A program made the translations under genes and the position numbers. The notes under the pieces are model-generated. The model saw only the letters and a program-made list of their open reading frames with translations. It had not been told where the DNA came from and searched no databases. Of a DNA stretch of 47,216 nucleotides, positions 5,938 through 16,882 are shown piece after piece. Origin of the DNA: an uncultured archaeon (GTDB lineage: Archaea > Asgardarchaeota > Lokiarchaeia > Sigyniarchaeales > SOKP01); NCBI GenBank assembly GCA_964525635.1, contig CAZGJX010000019.1, forward strand, positions 1-47,216. Reading direction: 5' to 3'. How positions within the stretch are numbered: the first letter of the stretch is position 1; each line of letters starts with the position of its first letter.

Positions 5938-8805
5938 ATGGAAAATTATATTATTATCAAAGGTGCTCGTCAAAACAATCTTAAAAATATAAATGTTAAA
6001 ATTCCTCGTAATAAACTTATAACTGTTACGGGTGTAAGTGGTAGTGGAAAATCAAGCCTTGCAATGGATACTTTATATGCTGAAGGACAAAGAAGATTTT
6101 TAGAATCTTTATCTAGTTATGCAAGGCAATTTCTTGGAGAAATGGATAAACCAGATGTAGATTCAATAGAAGGATTATCACCAGCAATCGCAATAGAACA
6201 GAAACCACTTTCCAAAAATCCAAGAAGTACCGTTGGTACAGTTACAGAAATTTATGATTATTATAGATTATTATATGCTAATATTGGTATACCACATTGT
6301 CCAAATTGTGGAAAAGAAATTAAACCCCAAACCCCACAACAAATAATCGAACAAATATTGGATTCTATAGAAGAAAATCAGAAATTTATTGTTAAAGCAC
6401 CTTTAATTAGAGATAGAAAAGGAGAATATAAAGACTTATTACAAGATCTTAAAAAACAAGGTTATGTTAGGGTTGAAATTGATGGAATTCAATATACTCT
6501 TGATGAAGATATTTCAATGGATAAGAATGTCAAACACAATATCAATGTTATCATCGATCGTCTTGTAATGAAAAAGGATATAAAAAAGAGAGTAGCAGAT
6601 TCAATTGAAACAGCATTAGAGTTAACTGATGGTATTTTATTAATTGAAATCGTGGATAAAGAGGAACAAATGTTTTCTGAACATTATGCTTGTTTGGATT
6701 GTCAAATATCATTACCTCCTATTGATCATAAAATGTTTTCCTTCAATATCCCTCATGGAAGTTGTCAATATTGTCATGGCTTAGGTAATGTTATGGAATT
6801 TGATTATAACACAATTTTAGGATCAAATTTCGATATTACCCTTCAAGAAAGTGGAATTCGAAATATTCCCGGATTTAAAAGTGATGATGCTTATTCTTGG
6901 CAGATGTTGGAACAAGTTGCTAATTTTTATAATTTTGATTTAAATAATACACCTATTAAAGATATGGATCCAGAAAACCTAAAAAAGATATTATATGGAT
7001 CTGGTGAAGATACTATTGATTTTCAATTTAGAAGTAATGGGAATAATTTTAATGATAATGCTAATGGAAAAGTCTCATCATGGCAAGTAAATAGGAAATT
7101 TGAAGGAATCATTCCCATGTTGCATAGAAGATATATGGAAACAAGTTCTGAAATATCTCGAGATATGTATGAAAAAATGATGAATAGTGTTAATTGTCCT
7201 GAATGTAAAGGCCAAAGATTAAAGCCTGAAAGTAGAGCAGTGACTATTAATGGTTTAAATATAGCTGAGCTTACAATGCTCTCTGTAAAAGAATCTGATA
7301 AATTTTTTAAAAATTTAAAGTTAGATAATACACAAGCTACTATAATAAAAGATGTATTAAAAGAAATTAAAGATAGATTGAGTTTTCTTGATAATGTAGG
7401 ATTGGATTATATTCAGTTAAATAGAAGATCAGATACGTTATCAGTTGGAGAAGCTGAAAGAATTCGTCTTGCTACGCAATTAGGTTCAACTCTAGTGGGT
7501 GTATTATATGTATTAGATGAGCCTACTGTTGGTTTACATCAGAGAGATATCTCCCGATTAATAAAGATGCTAAAAAAATTAAGAGATCTAGGAAATACAG
7601 TGCTTGTTGTGGAACACGATGATGAGGTAATCAAAAATTCAGATCATATAATCGATTTAGGTCCATTGGCTGGGATACATGGTGGAGAAATAGTTGCAGA
7701 AGGATCAGTTGATGAGATCTTAAAATCCAATTCCTTAACTGGTAAATATTTATCTGGTAAAGCTATAATTAATATTCCGAAAAAAAGAAGAGAAATTAAA
7801 GATAAATTCATAGAAATAAGAGGAGCTAAAGAAAATAATCTTAAAAATATTGATATAAAAATTCCATTAGGTGTGTTTACATCTATTACAGGAGTTTCTG
7901 GAGCAGGAAAAACAAGTTTAATTATTGAATGTCTCTATAAGGGACTTCACAATATTATAAATACTCGGAGTAATAAATTAATTGATGGAGATTATGATGA
8001 AATAATTGGCTATAAATATATTGATAATCTTATCGATATCGACCAATCTCCCATTGGAAGAACTCCAAGATCTGTTCCTGCTACGTACACTAAAGCAATG
8101 GATTATATTAGAGAGATCTTTGCTAGGTTATCAGAATCCAAAGAAAGAGGATATGATAAAGGAAGATATAGTTTTAATACTAAATCAGGTCATTGCAAAA
8201 AATGTAAAGGAACAGGTTATATTCTTAAAGAAATGTATTTCTTACCAGATATTTATATAAGATGTGATTTATGTAAAGGAAAACGTTATAATGCTGAAAC
8301 ACTTGATGTTAAATTTAAGGAGAAGACGATTTCGAACATATTGGATATGACTTTTGAAGAAGCATTAGAATTTTTTGCTAATTTTCCAAATTTAAAAAAA
8401 ACTCTTAAAACAGTTGTTGATGTAGGATTAGGATATCTAGAGCTAGGTCAATCTTCTACTACTTTAAGTGGAGGAGAATCACAACGTTTAAAGATAGCTA
8501 GAGAATTGAGGAAGAAAAGTACTGGTAATACTCTTTATATTTTAGATGAACCTACAACGGGATTATCAACTTATGATATTAATATTTTATTGAATGTACT
8601 TCAAAGATTAGTTGATAAAGGAAATACGGTGATAGTTATTGAACATAATATGGAAATTATAAAGTCTACAGATTATATAATTGATTTGGGTCCTGAGGGT
8701 GGAGAAAAAGGCGGGGAAATTGTTGCATCTGGTACACCTGAAGAATTAATTAAAAATCAAAACTCACATACTGCAATATATCTAAAAAAACATCTTGAAA
8801 ATTAA
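5938..8805 (+). CDS. uvrA: Excinuclease ABC subunit A
   Basis: Two ABC cassettes (GVSGSGKS, GVSGAGKT, LSGGESQR, LDEPT) and zinc fingers. Confidence 0.98.
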   Translation: MENYIIIKGARQNNLKNINVKIPRNKLITVTGVSGSGKSSLAMDTLYAEGQRRFLESLSSYARQFLGEMDKPDVDSIEGLSPAIAIEQKPLSKNPRSTVGTVTEIYDYYRLLYANIGIPHCPNCGKEIKPQTPQQIIEQILDSIEENQKFIVKAPLIRDRKGEYKDLLQDLKKQGYVRVEIDGIQYTLDEDISMDKNVKHNINVIIDRLVMKKDIKKRVADSIETALELTDGILLIEIVDKEEQMFSEHYACLDCQISLPPIDHKMFSFNIPHGSCQYCHGLGNVMEFDYNTILGSNFDITLQESGIRNIPGFKSDDAYSWQMLEQVANFYNFDLNNTPIKDMDPENLKKILYGSGEDTIDFQFRSNGNNFNDNANGKVSSWQVNRKFEGIIPMLHRRYMETSSEISRDMYEKMMNSVNCPECKGQRLKPESRAVTINGLNIAELTMLSVKESDKFFKNLKLDNTQATIIKDVLKEIKDRLSFLDNVGLDYIQLNRRSDTLSVGEAERIRLATQLGSTLVGVLYVLDEPTVGLHQRDISRLIKMLKKLRDLGNTVLVVEHDDEVIKNSDHIIDLGPLAGIHGGEIVAEGSVDEILKSNSLTGKYLSGKAIINIPKKRREIKDKFIEIRGAKENNLKNIDIKIPLGVFTSITGVSGAGKTSLIIECLYKGLHNIINTRSNKLIDGDYDEIIGYKYIDNLIDIDQSPIGRTPRSVPATYTKAMDYIREIFARLSESKERGYDKGRYSFNTKSGHCKKCKGTGYILKEMYFLPDIYIRCDLCKGKRYNAETLDVKFKEKTISNILDMTFEEALEFFANFPNLKKTLKTVVDVGLGYLELGQSSTTLSGGESQRLKIARELRKKSTGNTLYILDEPTTGLSTYDINILLNVLQRLVDKGNTVIVIEHNMEIIKSTDYIIDLGPEGGEKGGEIVASGTPEELIKNQNSHTAIYLKKHLEN

Positions 8806-9215
8806 AAGCCATTCCAAAATTTTTTTACAGGATCTTCAAAAGCATCACCAATTTCATCCTTGAATTCTGAAAACTGAGCTATATTTCCATCCCAATTCTT
8901 TTTTATTCTTATCTCTGGGTATTTATCTATGAACTTGGTTGATATGACCTCCAATTCATGAATAATTTTATCTCTTTTAACTTTTTTAGGCGAATTAGCA
9001 ATAAATAAGATTTCATATTTTTTTAATAAAACAAATTGTTTATTGCTTAATTCAAAATGCGATAAACCACCTTCACTTACTTCTTCTGCGAAAGTATTTA
9101 TTGCACTTAGAAGTGCTCCGAAAAGTTGAGTCTCTATCTGTGGATTAAATACACGATTAAACAAAACAATTCCATCTTCAGTGATAATCCATAGATCATG
9201 TAATATTTTTACCAT
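8802..9215 (-). CDS. Longin/roadblock-like small protein (Asgard type)
   Basis: WIITEDGIVLF...QLFGALLSAINTFAEE...WDGNIAQFSEF pattern. Confidence 0.65.
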   Translation of the reverse strand: MVKILHDLWIITEDGIVLFNRVFNPQIETQLFGALLSAINTFAEEVSEGGLSHFELSNKQFVLLKKYEILFIANSPKKVKRDKIIHELEVISTKFIDKYPEIRIKKNWDGNIAQFSEFKDEIGDAFEDPVKKFWNGF

Positions 9216-9498
9216 TATTTATGCCTCTTTTATTTCTTTCATAGATATTTTTATTTTTTCATGGTATAAATTTTGATTCTTTAAATTTTAAATGATGACT
9301 ATATTGAAATATTTTTTAAAAATCAATGAATATTCATGAAGATTTATAGTGTAAAATATAAAATTAAATTATTTATAAAATTAATTTGTATATCATTATT
9401 ATTTAATTCTTTGTTCAATTGATTAATAAATGTGAAAAATTATTATAGAATTTGCTTAGGAATTTAATTAGACCTTCCTTAAGTTAATATTATCAAGT

Positions 9499-10824
9499 TT
9501 ACTTTTCTTTACAAAATTTATATAAAATCATTATTGAAATAGTTGTTAAAAGTACTATAAGATATATAAATAAAGCTAAATAATCTGAAATAGTATAGTT
9601 TATATCCAAAATAAAAGAAGCAATTCCATATAGAATTAAACTTATGCTTATTGTGAGTATTAAGATATGATATCTATACTTTTTTCTTATATATATTTCA
9701 AAATAATAAAATGGAACAGAAAGTAAAATACTTTCAAAAATTATTAAAGGAATCAAATAATAAAATAATTCAATTCCAAATATAAGATTATTAATTAATT
9801 TAAAAAAAATAACTGCATTTACTAATATTATGAAATTATGCACTAAATAAAGACCATAAGAAATTTTTCCAAAAAATTTCAATGAATTACCTGTTTTTGG
9901 TAAATTAATGAAAATATAATTAAGAAATAAAAGAAATATTATCGTTAACAATGGAAAATACAGTTGTCTTTCTATACTAAAATGAATATGATCATCCATA
10001 TTTTTAATATTTATAAATATAAAAAAAGATAAAATAATTAAAATGAATAAAGTTAATCCAATAATATGATTTTTCATCATTTTCTCTTTCTTTTTAAAAT
10101 TAGAACTTAACCAAAAGCCAAACAACATACCAAATATAAAAATAAAGATCCGAATTACAAACATATCAAAATAAAAAAGACTATCTGTAAAGATTTTCAT
10201 TGTAAATAATAAAATAATACAAATACTAAATGATATGATTAAACAAATAAAACTGATTTTAAGATTTTTTTTTATAAAAACATAAAAAATGGGAAACAGT
10301 AAGTATAAAAATAATATAAAAGAAATAAACCAATGTGTTGGTTCAATATAAAAAATCATATTAAGATCATTGAATTGAAAGGCCTGTAATCCGCTTATAT
10401 GAACTATAACTGAATTTAGACTAAAAATCTCGTCATTAACAATGTAATGAAAGAAAACATAGAAAAATGTAGATATTATCAATAATGGGTAGATTTTTAG
10501 AATTCTTTTTTTATACCAACTTTTCCAACAATGATCATCATAATTCATTGTAGCTATTTGAAATGTTAGGATCATACCACTTATAAATAAAAGGATATCT
10601 AATCCAATATCTCCAAGGAAAAAAATAATATTAAAAAAAGGACCAATTTCTTCCTTGAATGAGGTAAATTCATTGAATATATGTAAGAATATAATCCATA
10701 AGAGAGCAATCAGTCTTATACAGAAAATACTATCAAAAAAACAACTATAATCTCTAATATCATCTCTAATTGGAGTATTTGTTTTTTCTTTCATATAATT
10801 CCCCTTAATCCCTAAGTAATACAT
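9499..10824 (-). CDS. Acyltransferase family 3 membrane protein
   Basis: R...IIFLH, LLFISG, WYKKRILKIYP, HWFI, FGKISYGLYLVH; many TMs. Confidence 0.85.
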   Translation of the reverse strand: MYYLGIKGNYMKEKTNTPIRDDIRDYSCFFDSIFCIRLIALLWIIFLHIFNEFTSFKEEIGPFFNIIFFLGDIGLDILLFISGMILTFQIATMNYDDHCWKSWYKKRILKIYPLLIISTFFYVFFHYIVNDEIFSLNSVIVHISGLQAFQFNDLNMIFYIEPTHWFISFILFLYLLFPIFYVFIKKNLKISFICLIISFSICIILLFTMKIFTDSLFYFDMFVIRIFIFIFGMLFGFWLSSNFKKKEKMMKNHIIGLTLFILIILSFFIFINIKNMDDHIHFSIERQLYFPLLTIIFLLFLNYIFINLPKTGNSLKFFGKISYGLYLVHNFIILVNAVIFFKLINNLIFGIELFYYLIPLIIFESILLSVPFYYFEIYIRKKYRYHILILTISISLILYGIASFILDINYTISDYLALFIYLIVLLTTISIMILYKFCKEK

Positions 10825-10991
10825 TCTTTAGATTCATAACACTTTGATATAATTTTAGAATTTCTAAATAATTTTTTAAAGATAATAATAATTAGAATAT
10901 TATAGAAATTACTATACTTTAATAAATAATTTAAAGGTAAATTTGATAAATCTCAAATTATATCATTTATTAATTTAAGTTGAGAAATATA

Positions 10992-12845
10992 ATGACTGAA
11001 AATCAAATTTCTAATAAAGATAAAGATAAACCCATCAGAGCGCCTATAGCTTGTATTCTGGGACACATTGACCATGGAATGAATATTTTATTTTAATATA
11101 TTCACATAAAGACAAGTATCCTAGATTATATTCGAGGTACAGTTGTTCAGCAAAGAGAAGCTGCAGGAATAACTCAACATATTGGAGCTTCTTTTTTTCC
11201 AATTGAAGATATAAAAAAATTCTTAGGTAAATCAAAAAAATCATTTGCAGAAATGGATCTTAACTTACCTGGATTACTGATTGTTGATACACCGGGGCAT
11301 GCGGCATTCATGAATTTGAGAAAAAGAGGTGGTGCTGTAGCTGATATTGCAATACTTGTCGTAGATGTTACTGCTGGAACACAACCTATTACATGGGAAG
11401 CTGTAAGGATTCTAAAAGAAAGAAAAACACCTTTTGTTATTGCTGCGAATAAAATAGATAGAGTTACAGGTTGGAAATCAAATACTGATGCTGATTTTTT
11501 GGATACTTATAAAAAACAAAAAGAACATGTGAGAGAATTTCTTGATGTGGCTCTCTATAAAATGATTGGTGATTTCTTAGAGGAAGGCTTCAAAGGAATA
11601 GATAGATATGATAAAATAAAAGATTTTACAAAAAAGATAGCAATTGTTCCTACAAGTGCTAAAACAGGAGAGGGGATCTCAACATTATTAATGGTACTTA
11701 TGGGTTTGGTTCAACAATATTTAACAACTAATTTACAATTTTCTGAGGGTTCAGCATATGGAGTTGTTCTTGAAGTTAAAAAAGAAAGAGGTTATGGAAA
11801 AACGATAGATGTATTAATTTATAATGGAAATCTTAAAAAAGGTGATGATTTCATTGTAGGAGGTCTTGAAAAACCAATTAAATCAAGAATCAGAGCTTTA
11901 CTAGCACCTAAACCTTTGGATGAAATAAGAGATCCTAGGCAAAAATTTGATTCTGTTGACATGGTAAGTGCAGCTGCAGGAATAAAGATTTTAGCGCCTG
12001 ATATAGAAGATGTTGTTGCGGGGTCTCCCTTTAGAAGTATTGTTGATTCTTCAACTGAAGACACAATTTATAATGAAATTGATGATGAAGTGCAAAGAAT
12101 TAAAATAAAAACGGAAAAGGCAGGTGTCGTTTTAATGGCAGATACATTAGGTTCACTTGAAGCATTAGAAAATCATTTTTCTAAAAACGGTGTTAAAATA
12201 AGTGTAGCAGATGTTGGTCCTATAAAAAAAGAAGATATTATGAATGCTAATATTGTTAAAGAATTCGATCCTTATTCTGCTGCCGTATTAGGATTTAATG
12301 TTCCAATTTTACCTGAAGCAGAAACACAAGCCCATGTTGATAATATAAGGATTTTTACAAATAATGTAATTTATAGGTTATTAGAAGATTTTCTTGAATA
12401 TTCAGAAACTAGAAAAGCAGAAGATACAGCAAAAGAATTAGGTGATTTGATTTTACCAGCAAAGTTGAAGATGTATCCCCAATATGTATTTAGAAATTCC
12501 AATCCTGCTGTTTTCGGAGTTCTTGTGGAGGGAGGTACTCTCAAACCAAAAGTATCTTTAATAACTGATAAGGGTAAAAAAGTGGGTAAAGTTCATCAAT
12601 TACAAGATAAAGGTCAAAATATAAATAAAGCAGATAAAGGAACAGAAGCTGCAATATCTATTAGAGGTATTGAAATTGGGCGTGATATACAAAAAGATGA
12701 AACCTTATTTGTATCTGTACCAGAATCGCATGTAAGACAGTTAAATTTAAAATTTCTAAATGAACTCACTATTGATCAGAAACAAGTCCTAAAGGAATAT
12801 GTTGTACTAAAAAGGAAAATGGAACATGCCTGGTGGGGTATGTAA
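10992..12845 (+). CDS. infB: Translation initiation factor aIF5B/IF-2, split by a 30-nt intervening sequence (607 aa if removed)
   Basis: ATG 10992 MTENQ...RAPIACILGHIDHG; same frame resumes KTSILDYIRGT...GITQHIGASF...DTPGH...NKID. Confidence 0.95.
11080..11109 (+). other. Putative bulge-helix-bulge mRNA intron in infB
   Basis: 30 nt with in-frame TAA (11094-11096), internal stem GAAUAU/AUAUUC, two 3-nt bulges, long exon-exon stem; excision restores GGA AAG ACA. Confidence 0.75.
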
Positions 12846-12900
12846 TTTATTAGTTTTAAATTGAGAAGTAATTCTTAATTCAATAAGAGTTAATTTTATT

Positions 12901-14358
12901 ATGAATACCATAAAAGCGATTTTCTCAGAAGTTTTAGAAAAAATAAGGCCAACTCAAGAAGAAATATTGTTAATAAAAGAGATTGTAGAAAAATTAAAAT
13001 TCTTACTGAATAGAAAAGCTAAAGAATTAAATATTGAATATATTTCTATTGAACCTCAAGGCTCAACTGGTATAAAACAAACACAATTGAGAAATGATTC
13101 TGATATTGATTTATTTATTGGCCTGGATTATAATATATTTAAACCTAATTATGAAGGATTAAGTAAAACTAAAAGAAAACAAAAAATAAAAGAAGATCTT
13201 TTATGGTATTGTAATAATTGGATTATTAAAACTTTAAAAAAAGAGAGAAATTTCAGTAAATTTAATCTATTATATGCAGAACATCCCTATGTTAAATTAG
13301 AATATACTAAAGATAATATTACAATTGATATTGATTTAGTACTCTATTTTGAGCTGGAATTAGAAAATATAAAAAATTATGGTCCGATTACAGCAGTAGA
13401 TAGATCCCCATGGCATGGAAGATTCATAAGAGATAACTTAACAATTGAACAGAAAGATGATGTGAGATTGTTAAAGCAATTTTTTAAATCATGTCATTGT
13501 TATGGTGATAAAAGTCCAGTTGGCCGAGTTGGTTTTATTGGATATAGTTCAGAATTACTTATTTATCATTTTAAAAAAATTTTAGAAGTTTTTAATAATT
13601 TTAGTAATTTGGTTAATAATCCGTTAGATTATTATAGAAGAAATAAAGAAGAACTAGCTAAAATCACACATTTTGATGATGAATTTTTAATAGTTATTGA
13701 TCCTATTGATAGAAATAGAAATGTAGCTTCAGCAATATCAAAAAAAGCATATCAATACTGTAATTATCAAATTTCTCAGTTCTTAAAGAAACCTGAAAAA
13801 AGATATTTTGAAATATCAAAAATACCTGAATTTAACCCAAACGATTTTAAAAACATCATTTCAAATCTATATATTATAGAGTTTAAAGATATTAATGGTA
13901 AAACCCATTATACAGAAATGAGAGATAAATTATACTCTTTTGGCGATTATTTAAGAATTCATGGCGAAAAAGAATTTACACATGAGATTAAATTTGGGAA
14001 AATCATATTTGAAATTTATTTTGAAAATGAACTCAATGAATATAATATTGCTATATTTTGTAAAAAACCTCTTATTTCAAAGAGTTATATTCGTCGAGGA
14101 CCTCCATTAAGCGATAAAAAGCATACTCCTAAGTTTAAAGAAAAAAATCCTAATTATTTTTTAAAAGATGGTTTTTTATGGGTGGAAACTCAACGATCAC
14201 ATTATAATTTTTTAGAATTTTTAAAGATGGGAATAAAAAATAAAATTCCAGATAATTTGAAGGTTACAAATCTCTCAATTTCTAATAATGTGAAAACAGT
14301 ATCTGGTAAAAAAGCTCTTTATATTCTCTGTAATATGGTTTTACCTTTTATTGATTAA
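12901..14358 (+). CDS. cca: Archaeal class I CCA-adding enzyme
   Basis: GS...TQLRNDSDIDLF, YAEHPYV, TAVDRSPWH, VIDPIDRNRNVASA, RGPP. Confidence 0.92.
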   Translation: MNTIKAIFSEVLEKIRPTQEEILLIKEIVEKLKFLLNRKAKELNIEYISIEPQGSTGIKQTQLRNDSDIDLFIGLDYNIFKPNYEGLSKTKRKQKIKEDLLWYCNNWIIKTLKKERNFSKFNLLYAEHPYVKLEYTKDNITIDIDLVLYFELELENIKNYGPITAVDRSPWHGRFIRDNLTIEQKDDVRLLKQFFKSCHCYGDKSPVGRVGFIGYSSELLIYHFKKILEVFNNFSNLVNNPLDYYRRNKEELAKITHFDDEFLIVIDPIDRNRNVASAISKKAYQYCNYQISQFLKKPEKRYFEISKIPEFNPNDFKNIISNLYIIEFKDINGKTHYTEMRDKLYSFGDYLRIHGEKEFTHEIKFGKIIFEIYFENELNEYNIAIFCKKPLISKSYIRRGPPLSDKKHTPKFKEKNPNYFLKDGFLWVETQRSHYNFLEFLKMGIKNKIPDNLKVTNLSISNNVKTVSGKKALYILCNMVLPFID

Positions 14359-14623
14359 TATTAATATTTTATATAGAGATTTTGAGTTCTGCTAAACCAT
14401 AAAGAATAAAAAACAAATAGTTTTAATTAAAAATCACTTATAGATTTTTAATTCACTTTAATTTTCTTAAATTTCTTATGATTTTATTTTTTTTATCTTG
14501 GAATTCATCAATAAAGAATTTTATTAGCGTTATTTGTAATAAAATTTTTATCATTTAGAATATTTATCCATGTAGATTCTATTTATACATTTAAATCAAT
14601 TATAATACTAAAAATGAACTAAA

Positions 14624-16882
14624 ATGGTTAAAGTTAAAAATCCTGAAACGATTCAAAAGGAAATTGCTCAAGGTTCTTATGAAAAAAAACGGATATTCTC
14701 TATCATTGCTCATATTGACCACGGAAAAACAACCGCATCTGATTACTTGCTTAGAAGAGCGGGGTTGATGAGACCTGAAGATGCAGGACAATTGCAGATG
14801 ACGGATTCCGATGACGAAGAGCAACAAAGAGGTATTACAATATTCACTAGCGTTGTTCTCTTATCTTTTCAAGATCCAAGAGACCCTGATGGTGAAGAAT
14901 ATATCTTCCAAATAAATGATACTCCTGGACATATTTCATTTACTGGTGAAGTATCACGCGCTTTAAGGGGCTCTGATGGAGCAATAATCCTTGTTGACGC
15001 ATTAGAAGGAATTATGACTCAAACTGAGACTAATATAAGACTTTCTGTTGGAGAAGAATTATGTAAACCTGTTTTATTTATCAATAAAGTTGATAGATTA
15101 ATAAATGAATTAAGACTTAGTCCAGAAGACACTTATAAAAAAATTGATGAAATCACTAGACAAGTGAATGATTTAATAAAAAAAATTAAACCTGAAGGAG
15201 AAGATTTTAAGGATTGGGGTGTAGATTTTGCTAAAAATAGCGTTGCTGTAGGTTCAGCAAAACATGGATGGGGATTTACATATGAAATTCTTAAACAAAA
15301 AGGATTCACACCAATTACTGTTTTTGAAAAATACACTGAAGGAGATATCGAATGGTTAAGAGAAAATCTTCCATTAGATGAATCTATATTGAGAATGGTT
15401 GTTGATCACTTACCTGATCCTATAACTGCTTCAAAATATAGAATTCCTAAAATTTGGTCAGGTGATCTTAATTCAGAATTAGGTCAAGCATTATTGAAAA
15501 GTGACCCTAATGGACCATTATATGGGATGATTACCAAAATATTTCTTGATCCTGCAAAGAATTTTCAAGCTACCTTGATAGGAAGAGTATTTTCAGGAAC
15601 TTTAGATGAATCAGAGACTCTCTATCTAATCAATAACAGAACATCTAGCAGAATAAAAAGACTTGGTGTAATGGAAATCACTGACATTTTAGATATGAAA
15701 AAAGTCCCTGCAGGTAATCTATTTGCTTTATATGGCTTCATCTGTCCTTCAGGTGAGACCTTTATGAGTAATGAAGCTGTCCCTAAAGATAAAGATGAAA
15801 AGAATAGATTACCATCATTTGAAAAGATCTCATATGCATGTGAAGCTGTTGTTTCACGTTCAATAAAACCCAAAGATGCTCATGACTTAGCAAAACTAGG
15901 AACGGTAGTAAATAAATGGTTACAAGCAGATCCTACTGCAGAATTTCGTTTGGATAAAGAGAGTAAGGAATATATCTTATCTGGAATCGATCCATTACAA
16001 ATAGATATTCTTACAAAGAGAATTAATAGACAGGTATCAATAGATATTGGTGAACCAATAATTGTTTATAGAGAAAAACTTACAAAAAAAGGTCATGAAT
16101 ACCATACTAAATCTGGAAATTCTCATAATAAAATCATTATGTATGTAGAGCCTTTAGATGAAAAAACTGAAAAATTATTAGAACATGGAAAGATTACCGA
16201 TTTAATGGATAACAAGACAAGAGCCCAAATACTTAGAGATGAAGCAGATTGGGATGCAAAAGAAGCTAAAAAAGTAGTAGATGTTTATAATGGAAATCTT
16301 ATAGTAAATGGTACTAAAGGTCTACAAAGATTTGATCGTGTAAAATCTTATTTAACTGCATGTTTTCGAGATTGGGTAGATGCATGTATTTTGGCAAAAG
16401 AACCCGCAATGGGTATTAAGGCAATTTTTACAGATATGGATATACATGAAGATCCAGCTCATACGGGATATGGTCAAATTGCTCAAATGGTTAGTGCTGC
16501 TCTATCACTTTCAATGCTTGAAGCGGCCCCTCATTTATTTGAACCAATCCAAAGAATAGATGTTAAAACACCTCAAGGTACAGAACCAGGGGTTCTCGCT
16601 ATAATTAATAAACATAGAGGAAGAGTGAATAACGTAAAACCTGAAGGTGAATATGTAAGAGTGGAAGGACAGTTACCTGCTGGCGAAACTATTGGAATTG
16701 CAGATGAAATTAGAAGTACAACTCAAGGAAGAGCTTTTTTTGGTTATGAATTCTCTGGATTTGAACAAGTACCTCGAAGTTTAGAAGAAAGCTTAATTTT
16801 AGAAATAAGAAAAAGAAAAAGCATGAAAGAAGAAATTCCAACTGCTAAGTCCTGGGAGAGATACATTTATAAAAGGAGTTAA
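14624..16882 (+). CDS. Elongation factor 2 family GTPase, probably the Asgard paralog aEF-2p
   Basis: AHIDHGKTT, RGITI, DTPGH, NKVD; diphthamide loop reads HTG rather than HRG; not in a ribosomal protein operon. Confidence 0.85.
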   Translation: MVKVKNPETIQKEIAQGSYEKKRIFSIIAHIDHGKTTASDYLLRRAGLMRPEDAGQLQMTDSDDEEQQRGITIFTSVVLLSFQDPRDPDGEEYIFQINDTPGHISFTGEVSRALRGSDGAIILVDALEGIMTQTETNIRLSVGEELCKPVLFINKVDRLINELRLSPEDTYKKIDEITRQVNDLIKKIKPEGEDFKDWGVDFAKNSVAVGSAKHGWGFTYEILKQKGFTPITVFEKYTEGDIEWLRENLPLDESILRMVVDHLPDPITASKYRIPKIWSGDLNSELGQALLKSDPNGPLYGMITKIFLDPAKNFQATLIGRVFSGTLDESETLYLINNRTSSRIKRLGVMEITDILDMKKVPAGNLFALYGFICPSGETFMSNEAVPKDKDEKNRLPSFEKISYACEAVVSRSIKPKDAHDLAKLGTVVNKWLQADPTAEFRLDKESKEYILSGIDPLQIDILTKRINRQVSIDIGEPIIVYREKLTKKGHEYHTKSGNSHNKIIMYVEPLDEKTEKLLEHGKITDLMDNKTRAQILRDEADWDAKEAKKVVDVYNGNLIVNGTKGLQRFDRVKSYLTACFRDWVDACILAKEPAMGIKAIFTDMDIHEDPAHTGYGQIAQMVSAALSLSMLEAAPHLFEPIQRIDVKTPQGTEPGVLAIINKHRGRVNNVKPEGEYVRVEGQLPAGETIGIADEIRSTTQGRAFFGYEFSGFEQVPRSLEESLILEIRKRKSMKEEIPTAKSWERYIYKRS

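Follow-up and report, generated by a model that had tools for sequence, protein, structure and literature searches.

Archaeal mRNA introns and an interrupted aIF5B gene

Endonuclease-type splicing within an archaeal coding sequence is confirmed, in the literature searched, only for cbf5 (PMC2738675, PMC7714728), the pre-mRNA of which carries a bulge-helix-bulge (BHB) intron in the Desulfurococcales and Sulfolobales (Watanabe 2002; Yoshinari 2006; Yokobori 2009, PMC2738675). The intron in the 5′ untranslated region (UTR) of Haloferax HVO_1309 is likewise an EndA substrate in an mRNA (Schwarz 2020, PMC7714728), but it lies outside coding sequence, where frame repair is not needed; cbf5 is named as the only other mRNA case (PMC7714728). 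Here we describe a 30 nt insert in the aIF5B (IF-2) gene of an uncultured archaeon of the Lokiarchaeia (assembly GCA_964525635.1, denoted G000), in a stretch of 47,216 nt (contig CAZGJX010000019.1, positions 1–47,216, forward strand) that we refer to as the window. We propose that it is a cbf5-type mRNA intron, removed by EndA and RtcB, and put the probability of this reading at about 0.88.

The aIF5B insert resembles the cbf5 introns in being small and in separating the first base of an essential codon from the second (the codon of the catalytic Asp in cbf5 and of the P-loop Lys in aIF5B), and further likenesses are a BHB that is often relaxed, a hetero-oligomeric EndA predicted to cut after the second base of the bulge, and secondary loss in some lineages. 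It differs in its host gene and phylum, in that the site is common to three paralogous GTPases of one genome and appears to have been gained more than once, and in that at least about ten genes of G000 look similarly split; moreover, splicing of cbf5 has been shown by cDNA, whereas that of aIF5B is predicted here from sequence. Non-canonical BHB introns of Asgard tRNAs (bioRxiv 10.64898/2026.10.13.758758) share the superphylum, the motif, the enzyme type and repeated gains, but that preprint deals with tRNA genes alone, and the word 'mRNA' is absent from its main text. The inteins in the P-loop of aIF5B (IF2), those of Thermococcus and Archaeoglobus for example, are intervening sequences in the same G1 motif, but are ~520–570 residues long, splice at the protein level and mostly include a LAGLIDADG domain, whereas the insert described here is 30 nt with a stop codon and lies 2 nt upstream. 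A sequence-only reading of the window that preceded this analysis knew of no earlier report, and literature searches aimed at such introns gave us no publication that describes one in aIF5B or in an Asgard mRNA, subscription journals being mostly outside their coverage. New here is that the same nucleotide of the G1 Lys codon is interrupted in the aIF2-gamma gene of G000 and in one of its two aEF-2 paralogues, and likewise, with compensatory changes, in about 30 relatives.

The contig frame from the ATG at 10992 reads ...LGHIDHG, continues through 10 extra codons that include a TAA, resumes as KTSILDYIRGT, and is intact to 12845. Deletion of 11080–11109, which splits the Lys codon of the GTP-binding P-loop, gives a 607-aa aIF5B with GHIDHGKT and the junction GGA A/AG ACA (the slash marks the joint; the predicted joined sequence is CATGGAAAGACAAGT), such that a conserved coding sequence is disrupted by the insert and made whole again when exactly these bases are taken out. 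Two other 30 nt registers give the same product when this sequence is considered by itself, making three in all. The features are as follows, all on the forward strand, each with its basis.

10992–11079: aIF5B exon 1, 29 codons and base 1 of the G1 Lys codon (frame reading, conservation)
11080–11109: candidate BHB-type intron, 30 nt, 90% AT (only register common to four genomes)
11094–11096: in-frame TAA within the candidate intron (frame reading)
11110–12845: aIF5B exon 2 (match to TIGR00491 aIF-2)
11052–11070: 5′ arm of the exon-exon stem (duplex energies, pairing probabilities)
11074–11077: 5′ strand of the central helix, AUGG, in the exon at the His-Gly codons (motif coordinates, same-site comparison)
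11078–11080: 5′ bulge of 3 nt, AAU, predicted cut after 11079 (motif coordinates, register comparison)
11081–11103: intron hairpin, 11081–11086 pairing with 11098–11103 (fold, shuffles)
11104–11107: 3′ strand of the central helix, ACAU, in the intron, A11104 opposite G11077 (motif coordinates)
11108–11110: 3′ bulge of 3 nt, AAA, predicted cut after 11109 (motif coordinates, register comparison)
11113–11130: 3′ arm of the exon-exon stem (duplex energies, pairing probabilities)
11111–11112: equivalent of the aIF5B intein site (K/T), with no intein here (intein comparison)
11253–12845: shortened 530-aa open reading frame (ORF) of gene finders, lacking G1 and G2 (ORF call, protein comparison)

The sequence-only reading had reported the extra codons with their TAA, the otherwise intact gene, and a 530-aa call without G1 and G2, and all of these were borne out on re-reading; the shortened ORF starts just 5′ of the G3 motif DTPGH. 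Exon 2 matches the TIGR00491 profile above its cut-off, starting at profile position 17. The closest aIF5B homologues are labelled Lokiarchaeota or Promethearchaeota; HGKT is contiguous in 28 related loci. Among the 120 closest proteins GHxDHGKT is contiguous in 117, and the remaining three are shortened gene calls of intron-bearing copies. Databases hold the intron-bearing proteins as P-loop-less calls of 530, 581 and 587 aa. An intact second infB, which in combination with only unspliced transcripts had been named as a finding that would count against an intron, did not turn up in the genome (4.45 Mb, with completeness rated at 100%).

The in-frame stop and the origin of the genome as a metagenome assembly would both fit a pseudogene or an assembly artefact. 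However, contigs spanning the insert without differences were assembled from three runs (X1, X4 and X5, of which X1 may be the source; they are from salt marsh in 2019 and possibly one campaign), and a JGI contig (L036) is 100% identical across it. Homologous inserts are present in two species at a synonymous divergence (dS) of ~1, the ratio of nonsynonymous to synonymous divergence (dN/dS) is ~0.07, and there is the failure to find a second copy; we regard this explanation as extremely improbable.

Same-site inserts in other aIF5B genes

Three other Lokiarchaeia have an insert of 30–32 nt at the same aIF5B site, as emerged from the alignment of infB loci that had been suggested earlier. Those of the congener G002 (JAGXOA01) and of GCA_019894835.1 are related, 32 nt long and frameshifting, and that of G073, which belongs to another genus, is an unrelated 30 nt insert with a full four-pair central helix. 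The offsets at which removal restores the motif are 0–2 in G000, 2–5 in G002, 0–2 in GCA_019894835 and 0–2 in G073, and the only one common to all is +2. EndA cuts after the second base of each BHB bulge, and +2 is the register that this rule predicts; it corresponds to removal of exactly 11080–11109 to give HGKT, as originally proposed.

Since the inserts are of both 30 and 32 nt, no single readthrough or frameshift event repairs all four genes. Expression of the gene from unspliced mRNA, whether by readthrough of the stop, by ribosomal bypass or by a restart at the ATG at 11253, is compatible with the G000 insert in that this one keeps frame, but the 32 nt orthologous inserts do not, and readthrough would place 10 residues within the otherwise contiguous GHxDHGKT. 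For bypass there is no GGA landing codon before the Lys codon, and a reinitiated product would have neither G1 nor G2, although exon 1 is conserved. We therefore consider expression of this kind highly improbable. Among the intron-bearing copies dN/dS is 0.07–0.08 (dS 0.84–1.07), and it is 0.05–0.07 in comparison with intronless congeners; in the 16 codons before the junction there is no amino acid change among three intron-bearing species, at a proportion of synonymous differences (pS) of 0.5–0.75. By these measures the aIF5B gene is under purifying selection.

Other classes of intervening sequence were rejected. The insert is 30 nt with one hairpin, compared to the ribozyme core of hundreds of nucleotides in a group I or group II intron. 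The ends of the three genus-level copies (UG..AA, AG..AG and UG..AA) do not match the GU...AG or AU...AC of spliceosomal introns. An intein is not plausible for 10 codons with a stop, orthologues that shift frame, and the lack of a domain running from Cys/Ser to His-Asn. The 742-aa frame of a further aIF5B gene (L133, in G038) was also considered as an intein and rejected, as it reflects an N-terminal extension of ~140 aa rich in Lys/Ala repeats.

Metagenome pattern scans for same-site inserts and for the joined form gave no matches, although near-identical records were possibly not covered, and for the three genus-level aIF5B copies, as for the intron-bearing aIF2-gamma copies, no protein that is both near-identical and full-length came to light. 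One protein (P0117), 97.5% identical to the G073 product, was considered as the product of a spliced transcript and rejected, as it derives from multi-gene Logan contigs (≤27.8 kb) of an intronless relative.

RNA fold, covariation and splicing enzymes

The central helix of the G000 insert has three Watson-Crick pairs plus G.A. It departs from the canonical BHB, with two 3 nt bulges and four paired central bases, and has the relaxed form with flanking helices that is typical of most cbf5 introns (PMC2738675); three of four central pairs also defines the 'relaxed' class by the rule of bioRxiv 10.64898/2026.10.13.758758. Intron stem and central helix are not both matched by any of 20,000 insert shuffles at fixed boundary, and the 96 nt fold by itself is modest (z −1.8). 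The exon-exon duplex has energies of −12.9, −12.3, −9.2 and −9.8 kcal/mol in the four intron-bearing copies, compared with a mean of −2.8 kcal/mol and a standard deviation of 2.4 over 27 intronless orthologues, a single one of them at −10.9. The coordinates originally given for the central strands, bulges and intron stem are all correct. Of the fold that was claimed, the exon-exon stem stands (pairing probability 0.8–1.0), and the closing pair C11073-G11111 is weak, with a probability of just 0.04; the strict BHB is not the minimum free energy (MFE) structure, as ViennaRNA favors U11080-A11104 and C11072-G11111 over the strict pairs.

Removal of the insert by another enzyme, or by way of this alternative fold with its U11080-A11104 pair and 3 bp helix, is thus favored by the predicted MFE. 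However, the second-base rule applied to the alternative fold would be expected to take out 31 nt and to shift the frame, G002 has an A at the position equivalent to U11080 such that the alternative pair is impossible, and most same-site introns have a full G-C at that pair; we think this very unlikely.

The same nucleotide is interrupted in other translational GTPases of G000. One example is aIF2-gamma (C142:4667-4695, minus strand), with a 29 nt BHB insert that has the full four-pair central helix and the same break in the G1 Lys codon (A/AG). A second is an aEF-2 paralogue (C151:5048-5079), 33% identical to the aEF-2 encoded in the window, with a 32 nt BHB insert that is also present, at 31 nt, in the three congeners G001, G002 and G003. 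No interruption is present in EF-1alpha, in the aEF-2 of the window or in a further GTPase on contig C50. There are four interrupted GTPases in G002, and these include an orthologue of the window's aEF-2 (87% identical) with a 30 nt same-site insert at C200:713-742.

In total, 37 inserts were compared at the homologous nucleotide, four in aIF5B, 28 in aIF2-gamma (distinct copies across the family) and five in aEF-2; one further aEF-2 insert (G088:C13:38277-38332) was omitted from the count, as its BHB fits better one base downstream in the Lys codon. A broader pattern at the class level gave many false matches in intronless EF-2 genes. The stems covary, a feature that the earlier reading had proposed looking for: central pair 2 changes with the His codon (U-A in 33, C-G in four), and at central pair 4 there are 28 cases of G-C, nine of G.A and no other combination. 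All four central pairs are formed in the G073 copy and in most aIF2-gamma copies. Because G.A recurs in nine of the 37, that of the G000 copy is, on this comparison, a recurring variant and not decay. Across the alignment 86.5% of cells are paired, against 30–47% with slid partners, but the sequences are related, the counts are not independent and the shuffle control overstates significance. This relatedness weighs against an EndA/RtcB intron, as do the relaxed central helix with its three of four pairs, the strict BHB conformer lying 4.4 kcal/mol above the MFE (ViennaRNA, explicit energies), and the closing exon pair, which is C.A in GCA_019894835 and unpaired in eight of the 37 inserts.

With their ends untrimmed, the aIF5B introns of the genus are similar to those of aIF2-gamma (p 0.001–0.02); after end trimming and grouping by genus the signal is kept in just two of three (p 0.001 and 0.019 versus genus g2, uncorrected), which is suggestive of copying from aIF2-gamma to aIF5B.

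The catalytic alpha subunit of EndA (202 aa), encoded on contig C18, aligns best with PDB 3P1Z/3AJV, and retains Tyr, His and Lys at the positions that align with catalytic residues, along with a KPR loop. G000 also encodes a full RtcB and, on C105, a 204-aa beta-like paralogue from which the His motif is missing, such that at the sequence level it has a hetero-oligomeric EndA with specificity loop as well as the ligase. An (alpha-beta)2 EndA with an L1 loop is tied to relaxed substrates and has been reported in Asgard archaea (PMC5829648). All of the features of the cbf5-type class, in its relaxed form, that can be recognized in sequence are present in the aIF5B insert, and the proposal of an EndA/RtcB intron is supported by the shared register, the purifying selection, the failure to find a second copy, the presence of the enzymes and the covariation.

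We propose that the flanks fold into an exon stem, a 3 nt bulge, a 4 nt central helix with a terminal G.A, a second 3 nt bulge and an intron hairpin. From established chemistry, an (alpha-beta)2 EndA, with the relaxed-specificity loop in alpha, would cut between 11079 and 11080 and between 11109 and 11110, and RtcB would ligate the exons to give the 607-aa product. The G1 Lys codon of translational GTPases would be a recurrent insertion site, and the intron may persist not for regulation but since only exact removal restores an indispensable motif. A coupling of initiation to splicing capacity by the intron, as suggested earlier, finds no support in view of how patchily the intron is distributed; the aIF5B intron is rare (three of 135 family genomes scanned), the congeners G001 and G003 have no insert, and similar inserts occur in unrelated genes, among them those for RadA and thioredoxin.

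Gain, loss and other split genes

In both nucleotide and protein trees the intronless G001 and G003 fall inside the intron-bearing group, and the best trees call for one gain plus one loss, although the three intron-bearers as one clade are not rejected by the approximately unbiased (AU) test (p 0.057); the intron was probably lost again in these two congeners. The AU test does reject a single clade including G073 (p 6e-9), and so the trees imply at least two gains in the family, or many losses. The two intronless congeners differ at 19 of 60 nt in a stretch ending exactly at the intron site, compared to 0–3 per 30 nt on either side and ~96% likeness elsewhere (G003 has RSAILCIL versus RAPIACIL), and seven control pairs show no such excess, which suggests a short foreign patch, possibly from conversion, at the former intron site. 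The intron-bearing 5′ end of the G073 gene (L134/L090) and its upstream gene diverge from those of an intronless relative (L135), and the sequences are 97–99% identical beyond ~300 nt; recombination or chimeric assembly is possible, and both divergent tracts, that of G001/G003 and that of G073, could be assembly chimeras.

Patchy gains and losses at one site, with recombination footprints around it, could also reflect excision from the DNA in a fraction of the population, the insert being a tiny mobile or phase-variable element and cells relying on an insert-free allele. However, no joint that skips the insert was seen in the contigs examined (contigs drop rare variants), and the selection for G.U and for exon-exon pairing points to structure in RNA; we see very little chance that this accounts for the insert.

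The splice junction of an RNA-level intron would precede the aIF5B intein site by 2 nt; in 57 of 59 proteins examined this site is GHxDHGK/C...N/T (slashes marking the intein ends). The simplest reading is a shared targeting of the invariant motif by intron and intein, and we speculate that the intron protects from intein homing.

The gene order in the window at 5938–16882 is uvrA, a small ORF, aIF5B, the CCA-adding enzyme and aEF-2, and is conserved in GCA_019894835; a 441-aa membrane ORF at 9499–10824 is absent from that genome.

A genome-wide scan for BHB motifs that repair broken frames, which had been suggested earlier, gave 10 true and no mirror-image hits at the strictest three-pair setting, with cut-offs chosen after the fact, and placed the aIF5B site among the top five; a looser setting gave 28 true and seven mirror-image hits. 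Discrimination was reached only with strict structure filters, and a loose scan had none (28,859 true versus 29,059 mirror). Seven further candidates in G000, of 30–32 nt, are as follows.

C7:6422: S27ae
C44:13663: RadA
C6:7457: 2-oxoacid oxidoreductase subunit
C20:8308: GHMP kinase
C4:30193: RNase HII
C1:45743: thioredoxin
C3:4428: aldolase

The two halves meet at Pfam positions 196/198 in RadA and 33/36 in thioredoxin, and the other split genes are recognized by a motif or by one half only. An AUUC/AUUUC-like sequence is present in or near the loop in five of the seven. Elsewhere in the genome, 22 tRNA genes form a cluster made up of two arrays with opposite orientations (G000:C54:19098-26273; ARAGORN). 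A sigma-70 promoter scan was set aside as uninformative for an archaeon.

A broader interpretation, which we offer tentatively and consider rather doubtful, is that Lokiarchaeia undergo routine multi-gene mRNA splicing by EndA and RtcB, with mobile, site-selective mini-introns at the G1 Lys codon of several essential translational GTPases (three in G000 and four in G002) that can move between paralogues, are gained and lost via short DNA patches, and, by dividing the sequence beside the P-loop intein site, may block intein homing. The occurrence of same-nucleotide introns in aIF5B, aIF2-gamma and aEF-2, with gains and losses that can be dated, makes the arrival route of archaeal introns testable. 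A practical effect is that intron-bearing proteins sit in databases as shortened calls without the P-loop. If the aIF5B insert is spliced as we propose, the archaea most closely related to eukaryotes would depend, for core translation factors, on splicing of mRNA by the tRNA machinery. The finding would then bear on the origin of intron-containing mRNAs and would offer a counterpart in nature to splicing of the IRE1/RtcB type.
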